Part shown: piece after piece, positions 562-17,124 of the stretch | How the letters are laid out: each line of letters opens with the position of its first letter | Position numbering within the stretch: the stretch's first letter is position 1 | Virus record (IMG/VR): IMGVR_UViG_2935054407_000002 | Coordinates: 37,578 to 101,577 of that record | DNA length: 64,000 nt | Strand: one strand, 5' to 3' | Source: a virus | Taxonomy: Duplodnaviria > Heunggongvirae > Uroviricota > Caudoviricetes | The notes under the pieces: model-generated | Databases searched by the model: none | What the model saw: the letters and a program-made list of their open reading frames with translations, nothing else | Told to the model about the DNA's origin: nothing | Program-made: the position numbers and the translations under genes

Positions 562-1572
562 TCAGAGCCTTGCGAGAGCGCGGAGACGGCCCCGCTGGGC
601 AGCGAGAGCCTCGATGGCGTCACACCAGCGGGTGAGGTCTTCGGCAGGGTCGAGTTCTGCTGCTCGCGCGATAGCCCGCTTGGAGGCGGCGCCGTAGGCG
701 CGAGGAGCGAGGAGACGCCGGATTTCCTTCTCCCACCCGTCGAGGTCATTGCGATCAACGAACACGCCTGCGTCGCCGAGGGACTCCTGAAGGCCCGGCG
801 TGGGGTGCGCGATGACCGGGATACCGGACACCATGCCCTCCACCCCCACCCGACCCCACGACTCGTAATCGGATGGCATGAGCAGGAGTTTCGTGCGGGC
901 ATACACCTCGTCCCGCATCCGATCGCCGGGCAAGTTCGACAGCACTTCGACGTTCGGTAGGTCGCGAATGTCCTGGTCGCCGTAACCGCCGGTCACCGCG
1001 AGGAATTCCACGTCGGGCATGCGTTCCGCGAGCCGCCAGAACGTCTCCGAGCCCTTCGGCTTGAACAAGTTGATCAATGTGACGCGGTCGCCATGCTTGG
1101 TCCGGTACTCGTCGGCCAGCACCGGCGGATGAATCACGACCGAGTTCGGGCGTGGAGTGTTTACCGAGTTCAGCCACGTCTCGAAATCGGTGCGCATCCA
1201 CTGCGAGTTGTAGACCGCGAGCGAGCACGGCCCCTTTCGGAGCCAGTTCTTCGTCTGCGGGAACGTGTTGTGCAGCACATGCACCACCGGGATGCCGCGC
1301 ATCTGGCCGATCATCGACGCACGCTGGGTGTTCTCCAGGTGTGTGATGATCGCGTCCGCCCGGTCGGTGTAATCGAACGGATCGTGCTTGCTACGGAACG
1401 GGTGAACCCGCACCCCGTCCAGCTCATACGAGCCGCCGGCCACCGGGTTGGACAGGACCACGTCCACCTCGTGGTCGCGCTCTACCAGAGCGCGCAGCAT
1501 CGTGTGGACCATCCACTCCGCCCCAGCATTGTGCGCTGGCGGGTAGGCATGAAGCATCGCCATCAGGCGCAC
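562..1572 (-). CDS. GT-B fold glycosyltransferase (GT4/GT1-like) inside the head module
   Basis: C-terminal E-x7-E-like motif (DYESWGRVGVEGMVSGIPVIA). Overall GT4 retaining-transferase pattern. Confidence 0.75.
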   Translation of the reverse strand: MRLMAMLHAYPPAHNAGAEWMVHTMLRALVERDHEVDVVLSNPVAGGSYELDGVRVHPFRSKHDPFDYTDRADAIITHLENTQRASMIGQMRGIPVVHVLHNTFPQTKNWLRKGPCSLAVYNSQWMRTDFETWLNSVNTPRPNSVVIHPPVLADEYRTKHGDRVTLINLFKPKGSETFWRLAERMPDVEFLAVTGGYGDQDIRDLPNVEVLSNLPGDRMRDEVYARTKLLLMPSDYESWGRVGVEGMVSGIPVIAHPTPGLQESLGDAGVFVDRNDLDGWEKEIRRLLAPRAYGAASKRAIARAAELDPAEDLTRWCDAIEALAAQRGRLRALARL

Positions 1573-1595
1573 AACGTCTCCCTGGGGGTTGATGC

Positions 1596-1630
1596 CATGC
1601 GGGAGCCCGGGAGTAGTCGGACTCCCGCAC
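1596..1630 (-). terminator. Stem-loop between the capsid and GT4 genes; possible attenuator or weak terminator
   Basis: gcgggag-N-ctcccgc inverted repeat with an inner cccggg. No clear T-run follows. Confidence 0.25.
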
Positions 1631-1640
1631 AGCAGAGAGG

Positions 1641-2615
1641 TTAGGAACCGGCGGTCGCGGCCTGCAGCGTGCCGAACGGGTACCGGCTCGCACTGGTGGC
1701 GTTGAGCGTGGTGATCGGGTTGCTGGTCGCGTAAGCCAGCCGCATGGTGACTCGAAGCGCCACCGAGTCCTGCTGCATCAGGTTCAGGACGACCGCGCCG
1801 TTCGCGTCGCTGATGACGCCCTGGTCGAACATCTTCCAGGTGATGTCCTGTCGCAGCCCGATCACAGCCTTCGACCAGTCGCCGGCGATCATCTCCGCTT
1901 CGCTGGCGTCCCAGGCGCCGTTGATGACCTCCGACAGCGGGTAGCCGTACAGGTTGCCCGCGCTGACAGCGTCATGCATGTTCGACTGGTAGATCGGGAC
2001 GCCGTTGTCGTCCCTCATCCCAGCCAGCCGCCACTTCAGGCCGGGCCTCGACGCGAAGCCGTTGATCGCGAAGCCGTCCATGGCGACCTTCTCGCCGAGC
2101 AGCGTGACGTCCTCGGCGAGGTCACGGCCCGTGCCGGCGACCACGGTGTTGCCGGCCGCGACGGTGGACGGGTAGATGGCCGCGGGCCACGACGCGGGCT
2201 TGTCGGTCCCGAACAGAGCGGCAGCGTCGATCTTGGCTCCGAATGCTTCCACGATTCTCGGCCTGATTTCGTCCCAGATCGGCACCTGGGCGTCGTCGAG
2301 ATACGCCTCGGGGATCGGGATGATGACCGCGAGCTCCTCGGCGACCAGCGAAACGTTCTTCCAGTCGACGCTCGACGTCTGCTTCATCCCGGTATCGCCC
2401 GAAACCCAGTAGGCCATCGGCAGCACATCGAGGACGGGCTGCCTCTGAGTTTTGGTGCTCATCCTCACCTGGCCAGCCCGCTGGAGCATGAACGACTTGG
2501 TCGGCATCTCCTGGAGGATCTGCGAGGAAACCGGAGTCGGGATCAGCGGGTCGTCGGAGCCGTCGCGGGTGGTCATGGAGTTATAGGTAGGCACGGGGAT
2601 CTCGCTTTCAGACAT
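1641..2615 (-). CDS. Major capsid protein (HK97 fold)
   Basis: 324 aa, directly after the scaffold gene. Sequence pattern typical of HK97-like actinophage capsids; C-terminus is Ser/Thr/Ala-rich. Confidence 0.8.
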   Translation of the reverse strand: MSESEIPVPTYNSMTTRDGSDDPLIPTPVSSQILQEMPTKSFMLQRAGQVRMSTKTQRQPVLDVLPMAYWVSGDTGMKQTSSVDWKNVSLVAEELAVIIPIPEAYLDDAQVPIWDEIRPRIVEAFGAKIDAAALFGTDKPASWPAAIYPSTVAAGNTVVAGTGRDLAEDVTLLGEKVAMDGFAINGFASRPGLKWRLAGMRDDNGVPIYQSNMHDAVSAGNLYGYPLSEVINGAWDASEAEMIAGDWSKAVIGLRQDITWKMFDQGVISDANGAVVLNLMQQDSVALRVTMRLAYATSNPITTLNATSASRYPFGTLQAATAGS

Positions 2616-2666
2616 GCAGCGGCGCCGGGCCCCGTGCGAGGAATCCGGTAGCTGCGGGATAAGTGG

Positions 2667-3272
2667 TTAGCGGCCGAGGAAGCGGCGGAACGCCTCGTTG
2701 ACGTCCTCGGGCGCGTAGTCAGCAGGAAGAGCGCCAGGTGTCAGCGACTCAACAGGCCGGGTCCGGACGGGGTAGGAGTGCTCCTCCTCGTCCTTCTCAG
2801 AGGCAGCCGGAGGGGGCATCGCCGCGAGGCGCCGCTCCAACTCAGCTTCCAGTTCGCGACTGAGCTCCTGAGCTGCCTCGTTGATCTCGTCCTCGTTGCT
2901 GCCGCCGAGTCGATCCAGCAGAGACGTCGGGATGTTGTACGCCGCGGCGGCCATCAACTTGGCCCGCCCGATCTCGGCAGCAACGGCCCGCTGCTCGGCA
3001 GCGGCCAGACGATCTGCGATCCTCTGCTGCTCCGACTTCTGTGACTCTTCGAACTCGGCGTACTTCCGAGCTGCCTCGGCGTTCGCCTTGGCTGTCTGCT
3101 CGTGCTTCCTCGCCATAGCGCGCCACTTCGAGACTTCCGCTTCCCAGTCCTTCGCCTTGTCAGGCTCGTCCCGAGACTCAGAGTCCGCAGGTGGCTCCAT
3201 GGACTCCGAAGGGTCCGGCTCGATGCCGGTGGGCTCTTCGGTGACCTCTGGCTCAGTCGCGGTTTCGGACAT
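2667..3272 (-). CDS. Scaffolding protein
   Basis: Acidic, coiled-coil, Ala/Glu-rich protein between the MuF-like and capsid genes. The probable start is an internal ATG preceded by GGGAGA. Confidence 0.7.
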   Translation of the reverse strand: MSETATEPEVTEEPTGIEPDPSESMEPPADSESRDEPDKAKDWEAEVSKWRAMARKHEQTAKANAEAARKYAEFEESQKSEQQRIADRLAAAEQRAVAAEIGRAKLMAAAAYNIPTSLLDRLGGSNEDEINEAAQELSRELEAELERRLAAMPPPAASEKDEEEHSYPVRTRPVESLTPGALPADYAPEDVNEAFRRFLGR

Positions 3273-3378
3273 GGATGGGTCTCCCGTGTCGGGTAAGCGC
3301 TCGCCGTGTCGGCGGGCGAAAGGGGACATGCGAAAGCGCCGGGCCTGCCATGTCGGCTGGTCCGGTCAGGGAAAAAGA

Positions 3379-4176
3379 TCAGGAGGAGGGTTGATCGCGG
3401 GGCTCTACACCTGGCGGGAGAGACGCGGCACGGCCTTCCCACCACTGCCGCCACACCTTGCGCGCCTCGTCGCCGCCGGTACCGGCGGTAACGCGCTTCC
3501 AGGTGTCGAACAACTCGTCCGCTTTGTGAAGCAGCGGGGAATCGGCATCGAAGATCGGGACGGCTTGGCAACCATCGTGATCGTGGTACTTCGCTCCGCC
3601 GTACCGGCTATCACCAGCGGTTTCGGCGGACTCATACACGGCGCCGCGGGAAATCAGCATCGCGCACCATGAGCACGGGTCGCCGTCCCCGATGCGAGCC
3701 CAGCCGAGCGCGTCCTCGTCATCGTGAGAGGTGGCTTCCATGACATCCCGGCCGCCCTCAAGCGCAAGCCTGGTCGCGGTACCAGAGATCGTGACCGCCA
3801 TCCGGTCCCGCGCCTGCGCTGGCGTCGCACCAAGTCTCAAGGACTTCCGCATCACCGCCATGCCGGCGCTGTCCAGAGCCTCGGTCAACTGCTCCTGGGT
3901 GAGGGTCCGCGGCTCGGCCATCACGACCTCACCGGAGACACCCGCTGCGGTACGGAGTTGTCGGTAGTACGGGCCTGCGAGGCTCGCAGAGCGCTCCCGG
4001 CTGGTCATGACCATGGCAGCGAGCGCCATCTGTACACCCGGCCACGACTCCTCGGGCTGCTCCAGGTTGAACAGCAACCGGAGGAGCTTCACAACGTCGC
4101 GGACGAGGCTGGACGACACCACCCGCTGCTGTGCCTGGTAACGGGCAGCGGCGCGCTGCTGCTCAAGGTCTGACAT
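3379..4176 (-). CDS. MuF-like minor head / capsid morphogenesis protein
   Basis: Lies after the portal gene. CSWC...HDHDGC motif region typical of SPP1 gp7/MuF family. Confidence 0.65.
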   Translation of the reverse strand: MSDLEQQRAAARYQAQQRVVSSSLVRDVVKLLRLLFNLEQPEESWPGVQMALAAMVMTSRERSASLAGPYYRQLRTAAGVSGEVVMAEPRTLTQEQLTEALDSAGMAVMRKSLRLGATPAQARDRMAVTISGTATRLALEGGRDVMEATSHDDEDALGWARIGDGDPCSWCAMLISRGAVYESAETAGDSRYGGAKYHDHDGCQAVPIFDADSPLLHKADELFDTWKRVTAGTGGDEARKVWRQWWEGRAASLPPGVEPRDQPSS

Positions 4177-5575
4177 TCCCACCAGCCGAGTCCGGAGGCT
4201 GCGGCGGCGCTTCGAGAGCGTCAGCTTCGGCCTTCTGCTTGTCGACGATCGCGTTCAACTGAGCTTCCGCATCAGCCTTCGCCGCAGTGGCCTTCCACCT
4301 GGTGACATCCGTCTGCGTCACACCGGGAATGCGCTCCCAGAGCTCTTGCGCGGGCACGTCGAGCATCTGCTTCAGCTTCCCAAGCGCATCTACTGTCGAC
4401 GCCAGAGCGCGGGCTTCAGTGTCGCGCCATACGACCTGCGCGGCCATGTCGGACCAGCCCCGCTTGTCGCCGGCCGCGCGAGATGCCAGACGCAAGGTCT
4501 GCTCATGCGACTCACCGAAGCCAGACTTCCGCTCGGTGATCTTCCGCTGCAGGCCGCTCTCCGCTGCAGCGAGCGCTTCCGCCGACAGGTTGCTCATCTG
4601 ACCGAGCAGATGGTGGGGCGGCGTCTGGGAGACGGTCGCGATATGCCGGATCGTCTCCTCGGCGCTCTTTAAGTAGCCGCCCAAGTCCGTCTGGCCGAAC
4701 TCACCGAACTTGGTGTCTGAGTCCTCGGCCATCCACAAGCGGCTCACCGACGCGTTGAACGGCTGCATCGGGTTGCCGTTCTCATCGAAAGGTGGCGCCA
4801 TGCCCGTGACCCAACGCTGCCTGAAAGCGGCGTACTGCTGGGCCATCATCAGGCCAAACGTCGTCGAATTCAGCTGATCTTGCATCTCGAACAGAGGCTC
4901 AATCTCGCCGCGGATGCAGTCGTCGCCGTCCAAGTCATCGCCGTTGACGTACCTCACGACAGGGCACACGCCAAGGTTGTGCGCTTCGGTCTTGACGAGC
5001 CGCAACTTCCCGCCCGGCTTGACCTCCGCCTCCAGCACGTACCGGTTGACGTCGTCATACAGACGAATCGACCTGATCTGCTCCTTCACGCCGTTGTGAA
5101 TCGCCTCTTCGATGGCGTACAGCGGCCACTCATCGTCGATCGGGTCCTCGTAGAACGCCGTCATGCGCCGCGGCGACTTCGGGAGAATCACCGGCACAGG
5201 CTTGCCTGGCATGACCACCGTGTAGCCCACCCCGTACTTCAGGGCGGCCCGATGTACCCCGTGCTGGCGGGCATCCATACGGTTGGCCTGCCAAAACTCC
5301 CACGCCGCCGCGTTCTCATCCCCGCCGGCGGCCCGATACCCATCGACGTACAGCGCCTGCGCAACCACCGTGACCACAAGGGGCAAGACATTCACCCGGG
5401 CACGCTTGATCAGCCACTTGTACTCCTGCCGGGCCCCCTTCGGCACGTACACGCTGGACGCTTCGCCCCGCATGTACGCCGAGATCTTCTTCAGCCTCGG
5501 CTGCTCCTGCTCGCGCATCTGCAGCAGCCGCCGCGAGGTGTCGATGACATCCGACTCGGAGAGGGCCACAAGCAC
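4163..5575 (-). CDS. Portal protein
   Basis: 470 aa directly after the terminase large subunit gene. GTG start with a GAGGGG ribosome-binding site. Confidence 0.8.
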   Translation of the reverse strand: MLVALSESDVIDTSRRLLQMREQEQPRLKKISAYMRGEASSVYVPKGARQEYKWLIKRARVNVLPLVVTVVAQALYVDGYRAAGGDENAAAWEFWQANRMDARQHGVHRAALKYGVGYTVVMPGKPVPVILPKSPRRMTAFYEDPIDDEWPLYAIEEAIHNGVKEQIRSIRLYDDVNRYVLEAEVKPGGKLRLVKTEAHNLGVCPVVRYVNGDDLDGDDCIRGEIEPLFEMQDQLNSTTFGLMMAQQYAAFRQRWVTGMAPPFDENGNPMQPFNASVSRLWMAEDSDTKFGEFGQTDLGGYLKSAEETIRHIATVSQTPPHHLLGQMSNLSAEALAAAESGLQRKITERKSGFGESHEQTLRLASRAAGDKRGWSDMAAQVVWRDTEARALASTVDALGKLKQMLDVPAQELWERIPGVTQTDVTRWKATAAKADAEAQLNAIVDKQKAEADALEAPPQPPDSAGGNVRP

Positions 5576-5590
5576 CCCCTCGATTGATCG

Positions 5591-7240
5591 TCAGAATCCG
5601 TAAACGCGGCCCGTGCGGGTCCTCTTCTTGCGGTTCTTGTACTTCGGGGAAGCGAGCACCAGGCGGCGGACCATGCGAGCGCCGATCACACACACAGCGG
5701 CGTCGATCTTCTTCGGTGAGTCCGGAGACTCCTTACCGATCGACACACCCCATCGGTTGGGCCGGCGCCGAACATTCCCAACGTGCCGAGCAACCCGGGC
5801 GTCACCGTCGTGCCGGAATGCGCGCTCGTTGATCTCGGTCTCAGTGAGCTCGCAGGCGAGCGTGAAGTCGTAGGTGCGTGACCTCATGTCCCACGCGATC
5901 GGCTGCGGATCCTTACCGTCCGGCACGGAATGCACGAGCAGCTTCTCGGCGTACCGGCCTGGCCACGTGACCTTCGCGAACCCTTCCCACTCCTTGACGT
6001 CAGCGAAGAACGCCAACACGTCCCACCGGTCGAACATCTGCTCAACCGCGGCGTCCACCTCAGCAACCGGCACGACCGATTCCGTGCTGTGCGAGGTGTC
6101 CGGCTCCCACACGCCGATCGTGAAGACGTACCCGTCCGACATGCGGCACCCAAGCAGCGCAGTGGCGTCCCGCGACTTGGAGCCGTCGAAAAACGCGACG
6201 ATCTCCTCGCCGTCGGCAACCAGCTCGCTCGGATCCGCGATCAACGACCACGCTTGAGGCGTCATCCACGCATCCTGGGCTGCGGTAGGCCAGTTCAAGT
6301 ACTTCCGCTTGGAGTCGTCGGGCTTGCTCCGCGGATCCCAGATGCGTTCCATGATCGGACGTGTCTTCTGCCAGAAGCAGTCCTCGTACACGAACTCCAA
6401 GGCCCGGCGGAGTGAGTCCTCGTCCGTCATGTCCGTGTCCGGTGGAGCAACCCGTGCGTCGTACAGAATCCGTGACTCGCCGCGGGTCTTGCCTTCCTCC
6501 TGCGCCACCCACGCATCCCATGACGCCTCAGCTACCGATCCGATGCCGGGAATCCAGGAGTTGCAGGTCTCCAGCATCCGGCTACCGGACTTCGTGAGGT
6601 TGTCCTCCAAGGTCGCGGCTAGATCCGGGCCGCCGTTGGAGGGCTTCCAGTGCTCGGTCTCGTCAGCTATGACGCAACTCGACTCCGCGCCTTCAGCCGC
6701 AGTCGACGAAGCCGTGATCACCTCAAGGGTGCCCTCAGGAGCCTTGTAGTAGCGGGTCTTCGCCGGGTCGAGAGCGAACTCTGTGACGATCCGAGAGCCT
6801 TTCGGCGCGAACGCCCGCACCATCCGCATGGTGTTCGCCGTCTGTGACTCCGCAGTAGCGGCGATCTGCACCAACGGCATGTCCACAGGCTTGCCACGAA
6901 CCCCGCCAGGAGACTTCGAATCGAAGTCCAGCACCCGGACCGGAGCGCAAAGCTCAGCCAGGGCCATCAGAGCGGCGAACGGTGACTTACCCGACCCCTT
7001 CGCTAGCCGACGAACCCCGTGGTGGTAGAGCCAGTTGCCGTCCTCATCCACCGCGTACCAGTGAAGGAGGAACCGCACCTGCGACTCAACGAACTTCCAC
7101 GGCAACCCCGCGCGCGGCCCGTTCGGATGCCGCAGGTATTTGCTTGACCACCGGAGCACTTCCCAGCCGAGGGTGAACTGCGGAATCTCCTCAGGCAGGG
7201 TGATAAGCCGGTCAGCCGGAGAGACGACGACGCCACTCAT
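5591..7240 (-). CDS. Terminase large subunit
   Basis: About 550 aa with an N-terminal ATPase-like region and a C-terminal nuclease-like region. Start probably at MSGVVVSP; overlaps TerS. Confidence 0.85.
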   Translation of the reverse strand: MSGVVVSPADRLITLPEEIPQFTLGWEVLRWSSKYLRHPNGPRAGLPWKFVESQVRFLLHWYAVDEDGNWLYHHGVRRLAKGSGKSPFAALMALAELCAPVRVLDFDSKSPGGVRGKPVDMPLVQIAATAESQTANTMRMVRAFAPKGSRIVTEFALDPAKTRYYKAPEGTLEVITASSTAAEGAESSCVIADETEHWKPSNGGPDLAATLEDNLTKSGSRMLETCNSWIPGIGSVAEASWDAWVAQEEGKTRGESRILYDARVAPPDTDMTDEDSLRRALEFVYEDCFWQKTRPIMERIWDPRSKPDDSKRKYLNWPTAAQDAWMTPQAWSLIADPSELVADGEEIVAFFDGSKSRDATALLGCRMSDGYVFTIGVWEPDTSHSTESVVPVAEVDAAVEQMFDRWDVLAFFADVKEWEGFAKVTWPGRYAEKLLVHSVPDGKDPQPIAWDMRSRTYDFTLACELTETEINERAFRHDGDARVARHVGNVRRRPNRWGVSIGKESPDSPKKIDAAVCVIGARMVRRLVLASPKYKNRKKRTRTGRVYGF

Positions 7241-7646
7241 CGAGAGCCTCCACAGCCGCCTCCTCATCGGCATCCGTCTGCACCGCGCGCTCCAACTCCA
7301 CCCGCACCCGGCGCCGATCCCCTTCAGTCGTCAGCAGGCTCGACATGCCGGACATCACGGCAGCGAACATCTGGGCAGAGAACCGGCTCGCTTCCAAATT
7401 TCGGGACATGGCCTCCGCCACATACCGGGCCGTGGCCCAGTCGGACGCCTCGTAGAAAACCCGCTGCCCTGACAGCCCCAACGATCGGAACCAGTTCTGC
7501 GCAATCGGATGCCATGCCTCATCTGGCTCCTCAACAGGAAGCGGACCACCATCAACCTGAACCTTCGTGACCGCTTCCTGCTCCGCCTTCGTCCGATGCC
7601 CATGGCGCTGCCCTGAGCGCTTCCCTACGGGGCCACGAGAACCCAT
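7212..7646 (-). CDS. Terminase small subunit (putative)
   Basis: About 145 aa ORF directly upstream of and overlapping TerL. GGAGGTG ribosome-binding site before the internal ATG (MGSRGPVGKR...). Confidence 0.55.
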   Translation of the reverse strand: MGSRGPVGKRSGQRHGHRTKAEQEAVTKVQVDGGPLPVEEPDEAWHPIAQNWFRSLGLSGQRVFYEASDWATARYVAEAMSRNLEASRFSAQMFAAVMSGMSSLLTTEGDRRRVRVELERAVQTDADEEAAVEALDEWRRRLSG

Positions 7647-7805
7647 GACACCTCCAACGAAGGTCACGCCGCCAAACGGCTCACAGAGGCTCACGGGCTC
7701 TAAAACTTGGGAGGGATCTCCGGCGCAATACGTAGCCGATCTGGGGCCGGGAGGGAGGAGGGGACCCCGCCCACCCCCTCCTGCTAGGTCCATTTCACCT
7801 GGGGT

Positions 7806-8873
7806 TCAGAGGGTCGCCAGGAGGCGCTTCATGGCTTCTCGGTCACTCTTGATGGAGTTGCACATGAAGTGCGCACACTGCGTGTTAGCGGGTTCGTGTG
7901 TGCCTCCCTTGGCGAGAGGCACAATGTGATCGATGACTGGAGCTTTGGGGTGAGGCACTACCTGGTCTCTGTCTGTCTTGGTGTGGCAGAGCTGGCAGGT
8001 CCAGTCGTCTCGTTCAAAGATCCGCGACCTGTAGACGTGAGCTACATACGCGTTCTTCTGTACTGCTCGGCGCCTTGCTCTCTGGTCTGCCTTGGCGCAC
8101 TTCGCTGAGCAGTAGGAGGCGGGGCCTGTGGCTTGAACGCAGAAGGATGTGCCGCAGCGGATGCAGTCTCCTTGGACGAAGACGCGTGGCTTGGGGATGT
8201 GCTGCCTCGCGGGGTGCCTGTCGGGAAGTCTGGTCCATGCCCTGCCGTGTGGCCAGTCCAGTGGGGCCGGCAGCCATGCGGTTCTGCGTCGCTCCTGCTC
8301 CTTGGCTTCTCTCCACTGTGCTGTGCAGGCCGTAGAGCACCAGCGAGTACGCGTAGAGCTGGACGTGAATGCGGCTTGACAGTGATCGCAGGAGAGGCTG
8401 TATGCGCGGGTCTTGTTCGCGCATGGCCTGGAGCAGTATTTAGCTAGGCGTTGACGGGTTCTCCAAGCGGATCCGCATCCCTCGCAGGTGCGTTCGTAGA
8501 TGACGTCGTGGCTTGGCCAGCGGCCTGTTTCTTCTTTCCGCTGTCGCTGGTACGCCATCCCGCGTTCGACGTTGAATCGCTTCTCGCAGGAGGGTTTGCC
8601 GCACTGGACCCGGCGGGGATGCGTCATCTGATCGCCACAGTACGGACAAGGTCTGGTCTCGATGACCTTCTCTGCCTGACGCTTGATCTTGGCGTCCTCG
8701 GCCCATTGCTGTGCGCGGCCGTCGGCCTTGGCCCTGCGTGCACTTGCCTTGGCCCGACATCTGCCTGAGCAGTACGTAGGTAAAGGGCCGATCTTCTTCG
8801 GCGTCAGCGGGGTGGCGCACTCTTTGCAGGTGAGCGCGCTGGGGGTAGGGTCTGTCACGTCGTCCTGGTCCAA
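7806..8873 (-). CDS. HNH endonuclease with five N-terminal zinc-ribbon repeats
   Basis: C-terminal HNH motif DHIVPLAKGGTHEPANTQCAHFMCN. N-terminus carries five copies of C-x2-C-x10-14-(Y/W)CS-x2-C. Confidence 0.85.
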   Translation of the reverse strand: MDQDDVTDPTPSALTCKECATPLTPKKIGPLPTYCSGRCRAKASARRAKADGRAQQWAEDAKIKRQAEKVIETRPCPYCGDQMTHPRRVQCGKPSCEKRFNVERGMAYQRQRKEETGRWPSHDVIYERTCEGCGSAWRTRQRLAKYCSRPCANKTRAYSLSCDHCQAAFTSSSTRTRWCSTACTAQWREAKEQERRRTAWLPAPLDWPHGRAWTRLPDRHPARQHIPKPRVFVQGDCIRCGTSFCVQATGPASYCSAKCAKADQRARRRAVQKNAYVAHVYRSRIFERDDWTCQLCHTKTDRDQVVPHPKAPVIDHIVPLAKGGTHEPANTQCAHFMCNSIKSDREAMKRLLATL

Positions 8874-9022: not shown

Positions 9023-9167
9023 TTATCTGGCGAGGATTCCGCTGTCGGCCAGTGCGAGGAAGCAGAGGCCGGCGGCGAGGAGCGCGATGGGCCAGGCGCG
9101 TTGTATGGCGGCCCAGATGGCGGATGCGAGGAAGGCCACGATGGCGAGCAGGAGGATGACGTTCATG
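9023..9167 (-). CDS. Small hydrophobic membrane peptide (47 aa)
   Basis: Good AGGAGA ribosome-binding site. Translation MNVILLLAIVAFLASAIWAAIQRAWPIALLAAGLCFLALADSGILAR. Not in the ORF track because it is under 60 aa. Confidence 0.45.
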
Positions 9168-9175
9168 GGTGTCTC

Positions 9176-9508
9176 CTAGATGAGACCTGGGTGTTTTTCC
9201 TGTGGACGCTGCCTGGGGATGCGTTTGGCTTGTGCTGCTTGTCCACCTTCGCGGGAGGACTTGGTGCGGTGGCAGTAGGGAGCGACGTTGTGATGGATGG
9301 CGGCCAGGTTCTCAAGCGAGTGGTCGTCGCCAACCACGATGTGGTCGACGCCGTCTGCTCCGGGGCCGCAGCAGACGTGGCAGATGCGCTGGTCTCGTTT
9401 GAGTACCTGGTTGCGGCGTTTGGGCCAGTCTGCGGGGAGGCGGTCTCGGCGATCAGATCCCTTCCATCCGCCGGCCATTAGCTCTTGATGCCCTTCTCGG
9501 CTGGCCAT
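9176..9508 (-). CDS. HNH endonuclease
   Basis: CHVCCG...DHIV...N...H signature. Confidence 0.8.
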   Translation of the reverse strand: MASREGHQELMAGGWKGSDRRDRLPADWPKRRNQVLKRDQRICHVCCGPGADGVDHIVVGDDHSLENLAAIHHNVAPYCHRTKSSREGGQAAQAKRIPRQRPQEKHPGLI

Positions 9509-9702
9509 TCGCCAGTGGCCTGCTTGTGGAGGCGAGCGCAGAGTCCTTTGACGACGCCTGGCCCTACGTGCTTGGAGAGCTCTTCTACGCAGCGGTCGTA
9601 GGAGCCGTCGGTTCCCCAGCGCAGGCGCAGAGCTCCTGGACCGGTAGTCCAGTACCGCATGAGCTTCTCGGTTCCGTTGTCTCCGGGCTTGGCGTCTGCC
9701 AT
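9478..9702 (-). CDS. Hypothetical phage protein
   Basis: 74 aa ORF with good codon bias. Confidence 0.45.
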   Translation of the reverse strand: MADAKPGDNGTEKLMRYWTTGPGALRLRWGTDGSYDRCVEELSKHVGPGVVKGLCARLHKQATGEWPAEKGIKS

Positions 9703-9724
9703 GAGGGCCTCCGATCTCGGCCTG

Positions 9725-9865
9725 TTAGGAACCCTGTTGTGGGGTCTTCTTGCGCTTCTTCGGCGAGGTCAGGAAGTTGCGTATGGCTCGGTTGGCCATA
9801 GCTGCCTGGCCTGCTTTGTCTGTGGGGATCAGGTCGGTGGAGCCCCAGGAGAATCGGTCAGCCAT
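9725..9865 (-). CDS. Small basic ORF (46 aa)
   Basis: ATG overlaps the ART gene stop (TGATG). Lys-rich C-terminus. Confidence 0.25.
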   Translation of the reverse strand: MADRFSWGSTDLIPTDKAGQAAMANRAIRNFLTSPKKRKKTPQQGS

Positions 9866-10671
9866 CAGAGCATCAGCTCCATGTGGACGTGCGGGACGCC
9901 TTTTCTGGTGGTCACGGAGACGACGCGGAACTTACTCCCTGGGGGGAGGACCATTTCGCGGTTGGATCCTGCAGCGGCTTTGGTTCCCTTGGGGAGGGTG
10001 ATTTCGGCGGTGGCTTGCCTGGTGGCTCGGCCTACGGATCCAACGTCGTTGGTGAGGCTGGTGGAGACGAAGCCCTTGTCGGAGAGTTCCTGACCTGGCT
10101 TGAGCTCGCCGAACTGGTCAGCGGAGAAGCCCCGGTAGACGGTCATGGGTTCCGTCAGCGGTGGGGCTTTCTTGATCGCCGAGTTGAGGTCTTTGCTGGC
10201 TTTGCGTGCCCGGTCGAGGTCGGCGTCGTTGAAGCTGACGTCGGCCTTGATGTCCTTGGAATTCAGTCCTCTGAGCTGGCCGTTCATCAGAGCGAACCCT
10301 GGTGACTGGTAGAACCGCATGGCCTTGTCCTGGGCAGGGCTGAGGCTGTTGCGCCAGGATCCGTAGTGGTCGTCGAGGAACTTCTTGTCCCGGGGGGCAG
10401 CCTTGGTGGTTCCTGCTGAGGGAGGGGTTTTCGCGGCGGGCTTCGCGGCGGGGGCCTTGGCGGCGCTCGGTTTGGGTGAGGCGACCGCTTGGGCGGTGCG
10501 CTTCACCGGCGGGGAGGCGGCGCCACGTCCGCTGTTCGCCTTCTTGGTGGAGGGCGTCTCAGCGGTCTTGGTTGTGGCTGGCTTGCGGCCGTGGTTCTTC
10601 TCAACGGTCGCCGCTGGTGTGAGAGGAACCCACCCATGCTTCCACTGCTGACCCGGGTAAGGGTGAGGCAT
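9865..10671 (-). CDS. ADP-ribosyltransferase (R-S-E clade toxin-like domain). N-terminal leader motif and Ala/Lys/Pro-rich linker.
   Basis: Aromatic-R (TVYRG), STS (GFVSTSL) and ARTT-loop-like GSNREMVLPPGSKFRVV motifs. N-terminus PGQQWKHGWVPLTPAA is shared with the upstream gene. Confidence 0.7.
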   Translation of the reverse strand: MPHPYPGQQWKHGWVPLTPAATVEKNHGRKPATTKTAETPSTKKANSGRGAASPPVKRTAQAVASPKPSAAKAPAAKPAAKTPPSAGTTKAAPRDKKFLDDHYGSWRNSLSPAQDKAMRFYQSPGFALMNGQLRGLNSKDIKADVSFNDADLDRARKASKDLNSAIKKAPPLTEPMTVYRGFSADQFGELKPGQELSDKGFVSTSLTNDVGSVGRATRQATAEITLPKGTKAAAGSNREMVLPPGSKFRVVSVTTRKGVPHVHMELML

Positions 10672-10813
10672 AGCGTCCCTCGCTTTCATGCACGAGTGGG
10701 CGCCATGCGAGGCGTCCGGCTGATTCGGGTTAAGGGAGGAGGTTCACTTTCGGCCAGCGGCTGCGCAGATCGCGTCGTCAGCCTTGCGGGAGTCGACTCC
10801 GCCCTTCGCGCCC

Positions 10814-12055
10814 TTAGCGGTTGAGCCGGATCTGGTGGTTCGGCTTAGGGCCGACCATGATGGCGGCAGCACGGTCTTCCGGCTTCAGGTCGCGCTCAAT
10901 CGCGGCGGGCTCGGTGTCCACCTGGCCAGCCAGCATGAGATCCAGAATGACTCGGTCCTGTTGGTCGCGAGGTAGATCGCCGAGCTGCCGGCGGACGGCA
11001 GCCATCGTGGTCCACTTGCCCGGCCTGGGGCTGGCGGCAGCCACCGCGTCCAAGACGATCTTTTTTGCCTGGGTGTCGGGGACGTTGCCCCCGGCGCTGT
11101 TGGCGCGCTGTCTCTGCTCCTCGCGCTTCGGAGCCGCCGCGGGTTTCGGCTGAACCTGCGGCTTACGGGCGGCCTCTTGGCCTGACAGGCGGATCTGGTG
11201 GGTCGGCGTGTTGCCGACCATGAGTTCGGCCTTGCGGTCCTCGGGCTTCAGATCCCCGTAGATCGCGACGGGCTCGATATCCAGTCGACCAGCGAGCATA
11301 AGGTCCAACATGGCCCGGTCCTGCTGATCACGAGGTAGATCAGCGAGCTGACGGCGGACGGCGGTTATGGTGGTCCACTTACCCGACCTAGAGTTAGCGG
11401 CCACCGCGTCCAGGACGAGCTTTTCCGCTTGAGCGTCGGAGACTTTTCCTCCGCTCGGGGCGGGCTTGGGAGGTGCGGTCTTCGCAGGAGCGGAAGCCCT
11501 GGGTGCCGCCTTGGCCGGAGGCTTGGCGTCGGCTGCGCTTTTCTGGTTGACGTCGCCCGCGTTAACGGTGACGACCTTCCCGCCGAGGTCGACCTTGACT
11601 TCGCCGTCGCCGCCCTTGCCGACGACCCGGCCGGTTTTGCCGTCGTGGTCGCCTGCCGTCACCTCGACGACGTCTCCGGTGCGGAGCATCTTGTAGTTGC
11701 CCGACAAGCCATGGACTCCGGCGGGGAAGCTGGAATCGTCGTCGGTCGCCTTACGTCCGCCTGCCTTGCTGGGCCGGCCTGCCATGGTGCGGAGCGCGTC
11801 GTCGACCTTTGATGACTTCGATGGCGCCTTCCCGGCGTTGAGGCCGGTCCACTTCGGAGGCGGCGTCCCGTCCGGGCCAGCACCCTCCTGGGCGTTCTTG
11901 CGGAGTGTCTTCGCTGCCTCAGCGGCTTCTGCTACGACGCGAGAGAGCATCGAGTTCTTGCCGGGCTTCTTGCCGTGGTTCTTCTTCACCGCAGCAGCGG
12001 GGGTGATGGGGATCCAGCCGTGACGCCATTGCTGACCAGGCTTGGTGTCTGCCAC
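10814..12055 (-). CDS. Multidomain protein with a shared N-terminal leader, a KOW/SH3-like segment, AKP-rich linkers and a tandem-duplicated ~90-aa winged-helix-like domain
   Basis: GTG start after AGGAGG. N-terminus MADTKPGQQWRHGWIPITPAAAVKKNHGKKP. Two repeats: ...KWTTITAVRRQLADLPRDQQDRAMLDLMLAGRLD... and ...KWTTMAAVRRQLGDLPRDQQDRVILDLMLAGQVD... Confidence 0.6.
   Translation of the reverse strand: MADTKPGQQWRHGWIPITPAAAVKKNHGKKPGKNSMLSRVVAEAAEAAKTLRKNAQEGAGPDGTPPPKWTGLNAGKAPSKSSKVDDALRTMAGRPSKAGGRKATDDDSSFPAGVHGLSGNYKMLRTGDVVEVTAGDHDGKTGRVVGKGGDGEVKVDLGGKVVTVNAGDVNQKSAADAKPPAKAAPRASAPAKTAPPKPAPSGGKVSDAQAEKLVLDAVAANSRSGKWTTITAVRRQLADLPRDQQDRAMLDLMLAGRLDIEPVAIYGDLKPEDRKAELMVGNTPTHQIRLSGQEAARKPQVQPKPAAAPKREEQRQRANSAGGNVPDTQAKKIVLDAVAAASPRPGKWTTMAAVRRQLGDLPRDQQDRVILDLMLAGQVDTEPAAIERDLKPEDRAAAIMVGPKPNHQIRLNR
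10817..11086 (-). repeat. Intragenic tandem repeat, copy 2 (about 270 bp, about 75% nucleotide identity to copy 1)
   Basis: Direct nucleotide/protein repeat inside CDS 10814-12055. Confidence 0.7.
11176..11446 (-). repeat. Intragenic tandem repeat, copy 1
   Basis: Direct nucleotide/protein repeat inside CDS 10814-12055. Confidence 0.7.
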
Positions 12056-13265: not shown

Positions 13266-13922
13266 GTGTGCGTCATGGCCAACAACACCGCCACAGGATG
13301 TGGAACGCTCCTCGTTGTCGCTCTCCTCGTAGGCGGCTGCATGAGCCTGTTCAACGGCGACGACGAACCCGTAGCGGCGCAACCCGCACAGCCCGTGGCA
13401 GTTCCCGACTGGGCGAACAAACCGCTCGTTGAGGCAGAGAACGAAGCGAAGGCTCTCGGGCTGGACCTGTCGTCTTCCGGACTGACCGGTAGCTTCTGCA
13501 GCGACGAAACCGACTGCTTCATCTACAAGACGGTTCCGAAAGCCGGGACCGCGGTTACGGCGGGCGCGAAGGTCGCGGTGAAGTGGTGGGACAAGGAAGA
13601 ACGCACGTTCCACCGGAAGTACCGGAAGATGCCAAACGTCGTTGGCTGGTCCGAGGAGAAGGCCAACAAGCTGCTGGAACCGATCTACTGGTCCGTCGAA
13701 GAACGCCGCAAGGAGACGACAAGAATCCCGGTGGGCGCTCACCGTGTCCTGGCGCAGTCCCCCAGAGCGGGCCGGCCGTTGAGGGTGGGACAGAAGGTGA
13801 AGCTGGTGATCGGCTTCAACTTCGGCTCAACCTCAGGTGATGGCGGTGGGGGTGGGAGCTTCAGCAGCGGTGATGGCAACGATGGCGAGGGCCGGTTCTG
13901 TGGTCGCCGCTGGTGGTGCTGA
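13266..13922 (+). CDS. Lipoprotein with two PASTA-like domains and a Gly-rich C-terminus (opposite-strand moron)
   Basis: Signal peptide with a lipobox-like LVGGC. PASTA-like segments (KPLVEAENEAKALGLDL...; MPNVVGWSEEKANKLLEP...). Only sizeable + strand gene in the late region. Confidence 0.6.
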   Translation: MCVMANNTATGCGTLLVVALLVGGCMSLFNGDDEPVAAQPAQPVAVPDWANKPLVEAENEAKALGLDLSSSGLTGSFCSDETDCFIYKTVPKAGTAVTAGAKVAVKWWDKEERTFHRKYRKMPNVVGWSEEKANKLLEPIYWSVEERRKETTRIPVGAHRVLAQSPRAGRPLRVGQKVKLVIGFNFGSTSGDGGGGGSFSSGDGNDGEGRFCGRRWWC

Positions 13923-13927: not shown

Positions 13928-14629
13928 TTACGGGTGGGCGCTGGAGGCGAGCACGCTTGGGTTGTGCTCCGCGACGAGAGGGCGGACCGCTTCGGGGTCG
14001 CCTTCGGCTTCAACGTAGCGGCCCATGAGCGCCATGTTCGCCTGGTAGAGCAGGCTGGATGGGTCGATTTCGCTGGGGTGCCAGAGGTGGAAGATCGTGC
14101 CCTCATGCTTGGCAGTCGGGCCGAGAAGCGCATCACAGGCAACCCTCGCGGCCGTGTCCTCGGCGCCCCAACCTTGGAACCGCTCGTCCATTCCGCCAGC
14201 CTGCCACCATGCGGAAGGTTGGATTACCAGAATGCCGCCGGTGGACCAGTCGGTTTCGAGCTCGGTCGCGCACAGGTAGGCGGGAGTCCCTGCGAGGTAG
14301 GCGTCCGTTCCCTGTGGGGAGAGTCCGCGGAAGTGCGTGTAGGGCAGGTGAAGGAGTCCGTCGTGGGCGCTCTCGACCGCCGCGAGGAGCGGTTCCCGCT
14401 CGGGCAGCGTGTCTGCGTCGCACAGGACGACCACGTCAGCGCCAACGTCCTGGGCGAGGCGAACACCGTGGTTGCGTGACCCCGCGCGGGAAAACGGTGT
14501 GTGGCCTGAGTCTGCGTCGATGTGCCACGCATCCGGCAGCAGGGTTCGCAGGTGGGCGCGCACCGTTTCGTGGTGGCGCTCCCGATCCGGCTGGCCGCCA
14601 CGCCAGGGGATTACGACTGCGACGCGCAC
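13928..14629 (-). CDS. GT-A fold glycosyltransferase (GT2-like)
   Basis: VVIPWRG...CDAD (DxD) motif. Confidence 0.65.
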   Translation of the reverse strand: MRVAVVIPWRGGQPDRERHHETVRAHLRTLLPDAWHIDADSGHTPFSRAGSRNHGVRLAQDVGADVVVLCDADTLPEREPLLAAVESAHDGLLHLPYTHFRGLSPQGTDAYLAGTPAYLCATELETDWSTGGILVIQPSAWWQAGGMDERFQGWGAEDTAARVACDALLGPTAKHEGTIFHLWHPSEIDPSSLLYQANMALMGRYVEAEGDPEAVRPLVAEHNPSVLASSAHP

Positions 14630-14639
14630 ATGACCTCCC

Positions 14640-15224
14640 TCAGGTCTTGCGGAACACAGCCCATGGGCGCTCCGGCTCGATGCGCTTCAGGCCGCGCTTC
14701 TCCGCTTCGGCCTTCTGCGCGTCGGGGTGCCAGGTGGTGACGTCGATCCAGATCTGAGCCTCTTCGGGGTTGTCCGAGGTGGGCCAGTCCACGACGATGA
14801 GTCCGCCCTTGCGGACGGCCTTGACGAGCCCGTCGAGGATGGCCAAGGCCGAAGATCGCGGGTGGTGGATCAGCACCGCCAGGCACACCACGGCGTCTAC
14901 CTTGTGGCCGATCTGCTCGTACAGGTCACTGCCGTCGGAGAGGACCTGCGGCATGTCGGGGTCGTTCTCGGCGAGGTGGGCGAGCATCTTCGGCGAGGCA
15001 TCCGCGCCGGTCACGTCGAACCCGAGACGCTTCAGCGGGATCGCTACCCGGCCATCGCCACAGCCGAAGTCCACAACGCGTGAACCTGGCTTGAGGACCT
15101 CGGCGAGCTGCAGGGCGGCCTGTTCACCAGATGCCCAGTACGCCTCTTCGGAGACGCCGCGCGACGGGTGAATATGAGCGGGGCCTGCCTGGTCCCAGGC
15201 GTCGATGACCTCTTGGCCTGTCAT
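14640..15224 (-). CDS. Class I SAM-dependent methyltransferase
   Basis: Motif I VVDFGCGDGRVAIPL. ATGA overlap with the upstream dehydrogenase gene. Confidence 0.75.
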   Translation of the reverse strand: MTGQEVIDAWDQAGPAHIHPSRGVSEEAYWASGEQAALQLAEVLKPGSRVVDFGCGDGRVAIPLKRLGFDVTGADASPKMLAHLAENDPDMPQVLSDGSDLYEQIGHKVDAVVCLAVLIHHPRSSALAILDGLVKAVRKGGLIVVDWPTSDNPEEAQIWIDVTTWHPDAQKAEAEKRGLKRIEPERPWAVFRKT

Positions 15225-16471
15225 GACTTCCGTCCGATCCGAATCACCGTCACGCCCGTCTGGTCAGGCATGTAGCCATGCGGGTCCAGCACCACCGAAC
15301 CAGCAGGGAACGCGTAGTCCACGAACTGCGGGTGCTTGGTGCCGATCACGTACACGTGGGGCTTGTCGAGTGGGCGATGACGCTTCGGCTCCACGAACGG
15401 GTCGTAGAGCCCCACCTGGCGTTGCCGGTCACGCAGCTGGTGGGCGAGGAGACGCGCTGGCGAGCCCGCGGTGAGCGCGCTGCTGGGCTTGTATGCCTCA
15501 CCGAGAATGTAGATGTCGAGGCCGGTCTGATCTGCCCACCGCTCTGCGAGGTCAGCCAGCCACCCTGACTGTGCTTCTCGGGCGTAGGCCATCTGGCCGA
15601 GCAGGTCGTAGGACAGTTCCAGGCGTTGAGCGAGCCATGACATGGCGATCAGGTCGCGGGGGTGGCAGGCGCCGCCGTCTCCCATGCCGCCCCGCAGGTA
15701 CTTCGGGGAGATCACCCGCTCGGTCGCGAGGGACAGGGCGTCGATGACCTGGTCGCAGTCAGCGCCGGTCTTCTCGCAGATCTCCATGAGGGTGTTGCCG
15801 ATGACGACCTTCGCGGAGATGACTGTGTTGTACGCGACCTTGATCAGTTCAGCGGACTCGATGGACGTCTTGAACACCGGCCGGTCATGAAGTTGCCCGT
15901 ACACCTCGACCACAGGGGTCAGGTGTTCGGGCCGGTCGGCGCCCATGAGGACGAACTCCGGCTCCAAGAAGTCCGCGATCGTCGTCCCCATCGCGATGAA
16001 CAGCGGGCTGTACACGAGGGTGACGTGGGCGTTCAGCAAGCCCCGCAGGTGCTTGTTGCACGTACCCGGCAGCGCCGTGGACACCACAACGAGCGTGATC
16101 GCCTTGGCCTGCTGGGCAGCGGCCCGGCACACATCCCGAACCGCCTGGGTGAGGAACCCGTACTCGAAGTCTCGGCGATCGTAGGGGGCAGGCGCCTCGC
16201 CGCCGTAGGCAGGAGCGTGCGGCGTCTGCACCGCGACAAACACCACATCGGCGTGGGCAACGACCTCGGCCACCGTGTGAGCGAGCTTCAACGGGCCAGA
16301 GTCGATCAGGTCCGCGAATCCCTGCTCGCCCTGGTCCCCACCTTCGGAGAACATGCGCTCGACTCGGGCTCGGTCGATGTCGTAGCCGATGACGTCGTGG
16401 CCAGCGAGGTGGTGCAGCGCCATGGCGCAGGGGGCGCCCAACTTGCCGAGGCCAATCCAGCCGACGTTCAT
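15221..16471 (-). CDS. Nucleotide-sugar dehydrogenase (UDP-glucose/GDP-mannose 6-dehydrogenase family)
   Basis: N-terminal NAD-binding MNVGWIGLGKLG. Family-typical central and C-terminal domains. Confidence 0.8.
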   Translation of the reverse strand: MNVGWIGLGKLGAPCAMALHHLAGHDVIGYDIDRARVERMFSEGGDQGEQGFADLIDSGPLKLAHTVAEVVAHADVVFVAVQTPHAPAYGGEAPAPYDRRDFEYGFLTQAVRDVCRAAAQQAKAITLVVVSTALPGTCNKHLRGLLNAHVTLVYSPLFIAMGTTIADFLEPEFVLMGADRPEHLTPVVEVYGQLHDRPVFKTSIESAELIKVAYNTVISAKVVIGNTLMEICEKTGADCDQVIDALSLATERVISPKYLRGGMGDGGACHPRDLIAMSWLAQRLELSYDLLGQMAYAREAQSGWLADLAERWADQTGLDIYILGEAYKPSSALTAGSPARLLAHQLRDRQRQVGLYDPFVEPKRHRPLDKPHVYVIGTKHPQFVDYAFPAGSVVLDPHGYMPDQTGVTVIRIGRKS

Positions 16472-17124
16472 GGGGTCCTTCCGGGGGTCCAAGCTGCCCG
16501 GAGCGCCTCAACATCGCGAGCTCTGGCGGCCTTCATGGGGGGTGAGTGGTAGTCCGCGGTCCGGTACCCGGCCTGGGCATCACGCCAGGTCTCGTCGTCG
16601 TGTCCGCCGGTCAGGTCGTGACGGTCGTGGAGGACGTTCACCACGATGCGGTGGTGGGCGCCTACCGCGGCCGCGACATCCTGGGCCCAAGAGTCACAGT
16701 GCGGGGACAGGCTGAAGTGACCGAGGACGTCCACCATGCTGCGGTGGACGATCGGGAAGATGTTCAGGGCTGGCGAGTCGTTGTGTGCCGGCCACAGCAC
16801 GCCGCAAGGCGCCTCAGCGACCCGGGAGTCCCAGCCGGGAGTGAGCATCCTCGCGTCGTCGTTCCACAGCAGCAGCCACTCCCCCGACGCCATGGCGGCG
16901 AGGTGGTTCACGTACTCGTGGAGCTGATGGTAGCCGTACCTGGTGGGCGCCACCCAGCAGGTGGCCCGGGACCGCTCAGCCGCTTCAACGGTGTCAGGGT
17001 CGTCGGGGTCCGCAGCAACCAGGATCTCCAGACGGTCCGGGTTGTCGGCCATGACGCGTAGGGAGCCGATCGAGTCCGCCAGCGAGGATGGGCGTCCACG
17101 GGAGGGCAGCAACACAGAGATCAT
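16468..17124 (-). CDS. GT-A fold glycosyltransferase (GT2)
   Basis: ISVLLPSRGRP N-terminal GT2 signature. 4-nt overlaps with neighbours. Confidence 0.7.
   Translation of the reverse strand: MISVLLPSRGRPSSLADSIGSLRVMADNPDRLEILVAADPDDPDTVEAAERSRATCWVAPTRYGYHQLHEYVNHLAAMASGEWLLLWNDDARMLTPGWDSRVAEAPCGVLWPAHNDSPALNIFPIVHRSMVDVLGHFSLSPHCDSWAQDVAAAVGAHHRIVVNVLHDRHDLTGGHDDETWRDAQAGYRTADYHSPPMKAARARDVEALRAAWTPGRTP

Follow-up and report, generated by a model that had tools for sequence, protein, structure and literature searches.

A candidate phage-encoded virion O-glycosylation system in a Streptosporangium prophage

Introduction

What do the glycosyltransferases (GTs) encoded by a tailed phage modify: its own virion, the envelope of its host or its DNA? 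The question is raised by a stretch of 64,000 nucleotides (positions 37,578 to 101,577 of the IMG/VR record IMGVR_UViG_2935054407_000002; hereafter the window), in which one GT gene lies within a phage head module and a cassette of further sugar-active enzymes lies apart from it. The window is part of contig JBITFY010000010.1 of assembly GCA_044456585.1 from Streptosporangium sp. NPDC050855, a name that the flanking host proteins also bear, and the element is an integrated prophage. An initial annotation of this DNA had argued that the enzymes glycosylate virion proteins rather than convert the host envelope.

Phage virion glycosylation was reportedly first shown in 2023, for a few mycobacteriophages. 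According to its abstract, that study reportedly found glycosylation to be scarcely evident among phages more broadly, and already noted GT genes in Streptomyces phages. Based on a comparison of the locus with its viral and prophage relatives we consider it fairly probable that it encodes a virion O-glycosylation system of a temperate siphovirus that has integrated into the genome of Streptosporangium sp. NPDC050855. The virion as the likely target, as originally proposed, is supported by a conserved slot for a GT4-type gene in the head-tail module, by serine (Ser) at the C-termini of the putative acceptors, by the homology of one cassette enzyme to mycobacteriophage proteins, by the predicted solubility of the enzymes and by the lack of a flippase.

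Results

The GT gene of the head module, GT4a (562-1572, minus strand), encodes a 336-residue, predicted soluble GT-B enzyme of the GT4 type. It exceeds the gathering scores of three Pfam models, i.e. Glyco_trans_1_4 (9.6e-14, 52.3 bits, cut-off 27), Glycos_transf_1 (5.6e-12, 46 bits, cut-off 26.4) and Glyco_transf_4 (8.2e-10, 39.4 bits, cut-off 28.5), matches phrog_26352 (2.5e-121) and carries an E-x7-E motif (ESWGRVGVE). A second GT4 gene, GT4b, lies just off the left end of the window; its 328-residue product is 55% identical to GT4a and has the motif in the form ESWGRVGAE.

GT4a is flanked on one side by the major capsid gene (1641-2615, minus strand; 324 residues, HK97-type fold, Phage_capsid 4e-27, C-terminus ...TLQAATAGS) and on the other by p206, which encodes a head-to-tail adaptor-like protein of 206 residues (1-552, minus strand, with the first 184 codons in the window; start ATG at 552 after GGAGG). 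The match of p206 to adaptor families is weak (Phage_Gp19, E=0.006), and its adaptor position is kept in relatives. After GT4a the source contig continues with p206, GT4b, a stopper-like gene, a gp10-like gene, the tail terminator and the tail tube. The placement of a GT4 gene between capsid and connector genes, as initially annotated, is thus borne out, with the slot retained in dozens of relatives. GT4a has 116 relatives in IMG/VR, and the order capsid, GT4, adaptor, GT4, stopper, gp10-like, terminator and tail tube is kept in about 40 high-GC IMG/VR contigs, down to 50% identity; some lineages have a single GT4. The gp20 protein of Streptomyces phage TurkishDelight (L001 11959-13995) is a tandem GT4-GT4 fusion, the domains of which correspond to the separate GT4a and GT4b.

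Between the capsid stop and the start of GT4a lies an intergenic hairpin with a 16-bp stem and no T-run (1573-1640, minus strand). Its predicted RNA fold has an energy of -37.6 kcal/mol (z=-4.6), and none of 200 shuffled sequences folds equally well. The element may be an attenuator that holds expression of the enzyme below that of the capsid, or it may act on RNA stability.

The capsid protein ends in ...AATAGS, its terminal Ser codon being 1644-1646, and the tail tube protein in ...EVEEHLS. According to PMC12619734, which cites Freeman 2023, the capsid and tail tube subunits of mycobacteriophages Che8 and Corndog bear their glycans at the C-terminus. All four of these subunits end in Ser (TGS, DGS, VGS and GDS); in papers other than Freeman 2023 we found no statement of the exact glycosylated residue. 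Judging from these sequences, we predict that the terminal Ser of the capsid is a glycan attachment site.

In GT4-bearing IMG/VR loci a terminal Ser is found in 41 of 44 capsids and in all 29 tail tubes. A second scan used the capsid protein as query and split its relatives, 79 unique capsid sequences, by the presence or absence of a downstream GT4. Within this one capsid family 52 of the 62 unique sequences with GT4 are Ser-terminal, compared to 4 of the 17 without (Fisher p=5.6e-6; raw, non-unique counts 67/77 and 5/19), and among the GT4-positive exceptions seven have GSA or GSN as their last residues. In isolate phages whose module contains no GT, seven homologous capsids terminate in P, P, F, P, P, E and E, and only one of the seven tail proteins is Ser-terminal. 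Phage Squirty combines a capsid homologous to that of the window with a Che8-type tail protein, and both end in DGS. Ser termini (...SGS, ...TGS/...PGS, ...SSS and ...STS) also occur in GT4-bearing capsid lineages that are 21-27% identical or unrelated (L035/36, L094/95, L262 and TurkishDelight). A simple assignment of one GT4 to each substrate was ruled out, since phages with a single GT4 still end in Ser on both capsid and tail tube.

The same association bears on whether the enzymes might glycosylate modified bases of the phage DNA as a protection against restriction, which we regard as very improbable. Phage GTs often act on DNA (PMC12619734), and there are phages, SP-15 among them, with a dehydrogenase of the same family as that of the cassette described below (PMC5977210). 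Under such a model, however, the correlation with Ser termini would be meaningless. Moreover, the GT4 genes are embedded in a structural module, and among the Pfam-annotated prophage genes, many genes being unannotated, there is no thymidylate-synthase-like hydroxymethylase, base kinase or similar gene.

The cassette contains four enzyme genes on the minus strand. Together with GT4a, these are the five genes that the initial annotation had named, and all five are confirmed in position, strand and family, except that the family of GT2a is putative, this being the weakest case with a Pfam score under the cut-off. GT2b (13928-14629) encodes a predicted soluble GT-A enzyme of 233 residues that resembles GT7 and B4GalT enzymes. 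It matches Glyco_transf_7C (7e-6, 26 bits, cut-off 23) and phrog_1721 (5e-33), and its CDADT (DxD) and GWGAED motifs align with chondroitin synthase 3 and B4GalT7. Because the match to Glyco_tranf_2_2 stays under the cut-off, the label GT2 is loose for this protein, and GT7-like fits better. GT2b is homologous to Corndog gp37 (31%, 2e-20) and Che8 gp109 (27%, 6e-13), members of an actinophage 'galactosyltransferase' family. This family comprises 362 actinophage records, many from Mycobacterium and some from Gordonia phages, and in many viral contigs a member directly adjoins a GT4 of the GT4a family, often within structural modules.

The methyltransferase gene MT (14640-15224) encodes a class I S-adenosylmethionine (SAM)-dependent enzyme of 194 residues that matches the Pfam models Methyltransf_23/25/11 at about 1e-13. 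No specific NCBIfam equivalog was matched, and we presume that the protein is a sugar O-methyltransferase. Its neighbour (15221-16471) encodes a nucleoside diphosphate (NDP)-sugar 6-dehydrogenase of the UDP-glucose/GDP-mannose dehydrogenase family with 416 residues. The N-terminal (UDPG_MGDP_dh_N, 3e-20, 73 bits) and central (3e-19, 69 bits) domains score over their cut-offs, the C domain just under (28.8 bits against 30), as does the full protein against TIGR03026 (185.3, cut-off 189.8). An NAD motif (GLGKLG) is present, and the catalytic-Cys motif GGACHPRD aligns with GGSCFPKD of PDB entry 3vtf. The motifs FIAMGTT and GGMGDGGAC mark a divergent subfamily. No NCBIfam equivalog that would distinguish UDP-Glc, GDP-Man and UDP-ManNAc dehydrogenases was reached at cut-off, and NCBI labels the protein only as 'NAD(P)-binding domain-containing protein'. 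The combination of dehydrogenase and methyltransferase had been called unusual for a phage. For the methyltransferase this does not hold, as Corndog has one, gp35, in its GT cluster (PMC4351075). The dehydrogenase subfamily is common in uncultivated phages, with 251 relatives in IMG/VR, though it was not found in any sequenced actinophage isolate.

GT2a (16468-17124), the conserved neighbour of the dehydrogenase gene, encodes a predicted soluble, GT-A-like protein of 218 residues. It reaches 20.2 bits with Glycos_transf_2 (cut-off 23.3) and matches phrog_14945, 'glycosyltransferase', at 9e-8. A profile built from 35 GT2a sequences matches the GT2 enzyme PglI across the NDD/DDD (DxD) motif (E=1e-3); D39, D89, D144 and H166 are invariant and D90 nearly so, and homologues are named GT2 by NCBI. 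Thus, several independent lines support GT2a as a putative GT-A enzyme despite the Pfam score under threshold. We presume that it is a uronosyl transferase that uses the uronic-acid product of the dehydrogenase. The small gene orf99 (17121-17420, minus strand; 99 residues) has no family match in Pfam, PHROG or NCBIfam, and homologues in L090, L261, L262, L341 and L414-L417. Hydropathy windows of 19 residues revealed no transmembrane segment in GT4a, GT4b, GT2a, GT2b, the dehydrogenase, MT or orf99. Among the Pfam families of the locus there is no GtrA-like flippase, membrane bactoprenol GT, polytopic serotype GT or GT-C.

The initial annotation had described an operon of four genes joined by ATGA overlaps. 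Such overlaps join GT2a to the dehydrogenase gene and the latter to MT, while MT and GT2b are separated by a 10-nt gap that holds a GGGAGG ribosome-binding site. The unit is also larger than proposed: orf99 is translationally coupled to GT2a through a further ATGA overlap, and a gap of 14 nt separates orf99 from the open reading frame (ORF) of a giant repeat protein, a probable member, which gives a unit of six genes. Directly upstream of the giant gene a terminator-like GC-rich hairpin with a T-run (20692-20707, minus strand), found by a consensus scan only, is the probable upstream boundary. No sigma-70 promoter was found in a consensus scan, which is uninformative for an actinomycete. At the other end a plus-strand gene (13266-13922) converges on GT2b, 5 nt from its stop. 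It encodes an exported, PASTA lipoprotein-like protein of 218 residues (two PASTA repeats, 7.5e-19; lipobox-like LLVGGC), is the only clear opposite-strand gene of its stretch and is possibly a prophage moron for superinfection exclusion or cell-wall sensing. The cassette does share the strand of the head genes, as had been noted, but the two are not on one uninterrupted transcript.

The set orf99, GT2a, dehydrogenase, MT and GT2b recurs in at least eight other actinomycete phages or prophages, 3-7 kb upstream of the terminase. These include the IMG/VR contigs L090/L260, L261/L338, L262, L263/L339 and L341 and prophages of Streptomyces spectabilis, Streptosporangium sp. CA-115845 and Nonomuraea sp. 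GTA35. Some sets are incomplete, L263 being without an orf99-like gene and the Nonomuraea element without a called MT. In L090 an unrelated methyltransferase occupies a different slot of the cassette, which suggests that the set cannot do without methylation. Cassette, GT4 and a Ser-terminal capsid occur together in four phages, one of which has a capsid that is only 27% identical.

The IMG/VR relatives of the dehydrogenase and of GT2b were collected by alignment-based scans, as single-protein queries gave too few. A scan of species-representative genomes with the dehydrogenase returned only matches of at most 49% identity in unrelated phyla and no actinomycete prophage; closer prophages were reached through GT2a homologues. 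A GT2a homologue is found near the dehydrogenase gene, usually as its immediate neighbour, in 46 of 76 viral loci (27-68% G+C) and in about 20 of 84 loci examined (80 bacterial and 4 viral). Pelagibacter phage HTVC008M carries both genes. The pair is spread over phages and bacteria of many phyla (L107-L186, L338-L413), including Pelagibacteraceae, Azospirillum, Nitrospirales and Elusimicrobiota. To our knowledge no function has been described for it, and the recurrent adjacency points to a portable, widespread two-gene module.

These data also bear on lysogenic conversion, in which the cassette, with or without the GT4s, would be expressed from the prophage and modify a host envelope glycopolymer with uronic acid or methyl sugars, for instance one resembling teichuronic acid, and thereby block superinfection. 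In favour of this stand the integrated state of the prophage, a cassette that forms a separate transcription unit beside the moron-like PASTA gene, and the presence of the dehydrogenase-GT2a pair in ordinary bacterial genomes as well. Prophage GT-A enzymes such as TarP of S. aureus do modify wall polymers in the cytoplasm. In nine of nine related elements, however, the cassette lies in lytic-gene orientation between the replication and packaging modules. The lack of a membrane protein, flippase or GT-C, the co-occurrence of the cassette with the GT4 of the capsid module and with Ser-terminal structural proteins, and the almost exclusive occurrence of the GT2b family in actinophages, lytic ones included, likewise speak against envelope modification, and we consider it unlikely.

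The giant protein (17435-20653, minus strand) comprises 1072 residues, with two all-beta, fibre-knob-like domains, about 27 tandem repeats of 22 residues (PAVVSATASVPAPSTxxGSSAS) and a C-terminus with a Trp motif. The repeats consist to 51% of Ala, Ser and Thr, and Ser and Thr make up 29% of the protein. A tandem-repeat search of the gene at the DNA level returned nothing, and the repeats are visible at the protein level only. In the annotations by PGAP and by the Logan gene caller this gene is overlain by antisense ORFs (426/436 and 213/275 residues). The minus-strand frame is real, as it matches phrog_3329, is open over 1122 codons in a 57%-identical homologue of another Streptosporangium prophage, and differs from that homologue mostly at codon position 3 (266 differences versus 145 and 103 at the other positions). 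Streptosporangium sp. CA-115845 (L416) shows the same antisense mis-call; such giant proteins are therefore expected to be largely missing from protein databases.

Related prophages have giant or LamG fibre-like arrays with Trp-containing C-terminal motifs upstream of the cassette (L261 2982-7451; L262 2333-6258; L414 2831-9985; L417 5086-10011), and most, though not all, of these genes are followed by a small orf99-like gene. This arrangement suggests that the fibre is paired with an orf99-like partner, a chaperone or adaptor. The giant protein is a candidate fibre, with a weak fold match, and a candidate O-glycosylation substrate. As to whether homologous cassettes lie beside Ser/Thr-rich structural proteins, a check that had been suggested, they recur after fibre-like genes; in the S. 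spectabilis giant homologue the repeats are rich in Ala, Thr, Gln and Leu and contain far less Ser.

The GT4 pair might thus act on capsid and tail tube and the cassette on the giant protein, possibly along with other fibre-like proteins, to give a mucin-like virion fibre. We regard this division of labour between two sets of acceptors as rather unlikely. It would accord with the giant gene, orf99 and the cassette forming one unit, with the Ser/Thr content of the repeats, with the fibre-like or LamG genes, mostly with an orf99-like gene, that precede the cassette in S. spectabilis, Nonomuraea and IMG/VR prophages, and with the existence of phages that have GT4 only. On the other hand, the poor Ser content of the S. 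spectabilis repeats means that a mucin-like character is not conserved, GT2b-family genes usually adjoin GT4, capsid or adaptor genes and not fibres, the Che8 and Corndog homologues act on capsid and tail tube, and the giant protein is only a putative virion component.

The window lies inside a 315-kb chromosomal contig, with a serine integrase gene (62150-63643) and host genes beyond it at the right end that mark one end of the prophage, which rules out a circular or rotated contig. Its G+C content is 63-70%, and nearly all plausible genes are on the minus strand. From the integrase leftward follow replication-type genes, the giant ORF, the sugar cassette, an ADP-ribosyltransferase, HNH, the small and large terminase, portal, protease, scaffold, capsid and GT4. 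The replication-type block between integrase and giant ORF encodes DnaB, Endo VII, two WhiB-family regulators (44674-44943 and 45707-46486) and a Thg1-like tRNA-His guanylyltransferase (31316-32128; Thg1 and Thg1C), the last three being early genes on the minus strand.

The ADP-ribosyltransferase encoded after the cassette region and before HNH and terminase (9865-10689, minus strand; PF03496, phrog_3895) is a stand-alone protein. Related phages carry the domain as a fusion with MuF-like minor capsid proteins. The tail genes lie off the left edge of the window and are readable in the source-contig locus L002, which is 100% identical to window positions 1-11572. There the tape measure protein (L002 15189-19214; 1341 residues) bears an NlpC/P60 peptidoglycan hydrolase domain. 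The span from integrase to tail genes would exceed 85 kb, if this is a single element. A Logan assembly of the same sample splits the prophage at about 43688, where contig 396 starts, the integrase side being contig 1028. At the DNA level no close sequenced phage was found, a nucleotide search of 50,697 phage records giving only capsid-gene matches of about 120-190 bp.

Discussion

Gene identities, motifs and synteny, the co-occurrence of cassette, GT4 and Ser-ended subunits, and the association of GT4 with terminal Ser are observed directly. From these we infer the catalytic steps, their order, the donor sugars, the acceptor of the cassette and the timing of expression, as follows. During lytic growth soluble cytoplasmic enzymes would act on newly made structural proteins. 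The two GT4 paralogues would glycosylate the C-terminal Ser of the capsid (...AATAGS) and of the tail tube (...EEHLS). The NDP-sugar 6-dehydrogenase would make a uronic-acid nucleotide, most likely UDP-glucuronic acid (UDP-GlcA), or else GDP-mannuronic acid (GDP-ManA). GT2a would transfer the uronic acid, GT2b would add a hexose or N-acetylhexosamine (HexNAc), and the SAM methyltransferase would O-methylate a sugar. Head and tail would thereby acquire a coat of acidic, methylated glycans, and the giant protein with its Ser/Thr-rich repeats may accept glycans as well.

Several observations weigh against this proposal. In Che8 and Corndog the GTs gp110 and gp38 are reported to be essential for capsid glycosylation (PMC12363180); no homologue of either is present in the window or in L002 (tblastn, E<=0.01), so that the choice of the GT4s as initiating enzymes is a guess. 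The substrate of the dehydrogenase is ambiguous, with a near tie between the best PDB matches, UDP-glucose dehydrogenase 3vtf (1.8e-29) and GDP-mannose dehydrogenase 1mfz (4.7e-28). The cassette is a transcription unit of its own, bounded by the terminator-like hairpin and the opposite-strand PASTA gene. Long contigs with GT4 and Ser-ended subunits (L017, L045, L192 and L218) are absent from the hit lists of GT2b and the dehydrogenase. As many phages thus have the GT4 module and Ser termini with no detectable cassette, the core modification seemingly does not require the cassette, which could act on a different acceptor; the GT4 module looks core and the cassette accessory. The loci that enter the Ser statistics are phylogenetically related and not independent, but the recurrence in several capsid lineages argues that the link between Ser and GT4 is real. 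Finally, phages of about 38% G+C (L051-L082, e.g. L068 8261-12851) carry a 36%-identical GT4 between major head protein and adaptor, yet have Ile and Ala as the last residues of capsid and tail tube. A universal Ser rule for the GT4 family is thereby ruled out.

Virion glycosylation of actinophages is already established, as is the presence of a methyltransferase in such clusters. What the locus adds, as useful and testable extensions, is the wide spread of the GT4 module, a terminal-Ser signature and the uronic-acid module, and with them a GT-B/GT4 class of initiating enzyme and virus-made uronic-acid donors would go beyond the known systems. Tentatively, we raise a broader and doubtful generalization: O-glycosylation of the C-terminal Ser by a GT4, often a pair, of the head-tail module could be a widespread, unrecognised trait of high-GC soil phages, a subset of which would add a module for uronic acid and methyl sugars and a giant, mucin-like glycosylated fibre. 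If this is true, more than 100 uncultivated genomes and many prophages of Streptomyces, Streptosporangium and Nonomuraea would carry GT4-Ser glycosylation. An acidic glycocalyx would then shape adsorption, persistence in soil or evasion of host surface defences, and a terminal Ser on both subunits could predict virion glycosylation from sequence alone. Such prediction of glycosylated phages bears on immunogenicity, stability and the engineering of glycan-coated particles. As suggested by the locus and its relatives, virion glycosylation would be much commoner in phages that infect filamentous actinomycetes. The dehydrogenase-GT2a pair of marine and soil phages is usually read as host metabolism; it might instead serve the synthesis of virion or surface glycans.

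The proposed system can be compared with several known ones. T-even phages are a precedent for DNA glucosylation. In Bacillus phage SP-15 a UDP-glucose dehydrogenase is linked to a glucuronate-containing base (PMC5977210). The locus likewise combines a phage-borne dehydrogenase of the same superfamily with GTs, and differs in that its GTs are linked to structural genes and no base-modification genes are among the annotated ones.

Other systems glycosylate proteins. In the chlorovirus PBCV-1 cytoplasmic GTs and a methyltransferase build methylated capsid glycans, and a UDP-glucose dehydrogenase is encoded as well. Unlike here, the virus infects a eukaryote, attaches its glycans through N-linkages at atypical sites and uses its dehydrogenase for hyaluronan synthesis. 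For the serine-rich-repeat adhesins of streptococci and staphylococci the GT4 pair GtfA/GtfB starts the O-glycosylation of Ser in the cytoplasm, and the glycan is then extended by GT-A enzymes. By analogy, the prophage has a paralogous GT4 pair and a giant Ser-rich repeat protein encoded beside GTs, whereas the proposed acceptors are phage structural proteins and there is no accessory Sec system.

Among actinophages, TurkishDelight gp20 is of the GT4 type, 36% identical, and encoded between capsid and major tail genes, and the capsid (...GSTS) and tail (...CVAS) proteins of this phage are Ser-terminal. It differs in that its two GT4 domains are fused (678 residues) and its capsid is unrelated, and searches detected no cassette or dehydrogenase in it.

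The mycobacteriophage systems (Che8 gp108-110, Corndog gp35-38 and Myrna; Freeman et al. 2023, Cell Host Microbe 31:1216) likewise consist of phage-encoded soluble GTs and a methyltransferase. With Che8 and Corndog the locus shares the homology of GT2b to gp109 and gp37 and the Ser-terminal capsid and tail tube. As with the Che8 108-110 operon across cos, the cassette lies just upstream of HNH and terminase; the presence of some GT genes within the structural operon is a feature shared with Corndog (PMC4351075). In contrast to both, the locus lacks homologues of Che8 gp108 and gp110 and of Corndog gp36 and gp38 (tblastn against the window and L002), has a GT-B/GT4 pair between capsid and connector genes, and adds an NDP-sugar 6-dehydrogenase with its partner GT2. 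It also differs in its Streptosporangium host, its prophage state and the giant repeat protein in the same unit. This agrees with the initial view of a system related to those of mycobacteriophages but organised differently, GT2b being shared and the GT4 pair and dehydrogenase setting it apart. Thus, while the locus does not appear to be a member of the Che8/Corndog operon family, it probably represents a variant of actinophage virion O-glycosylation.

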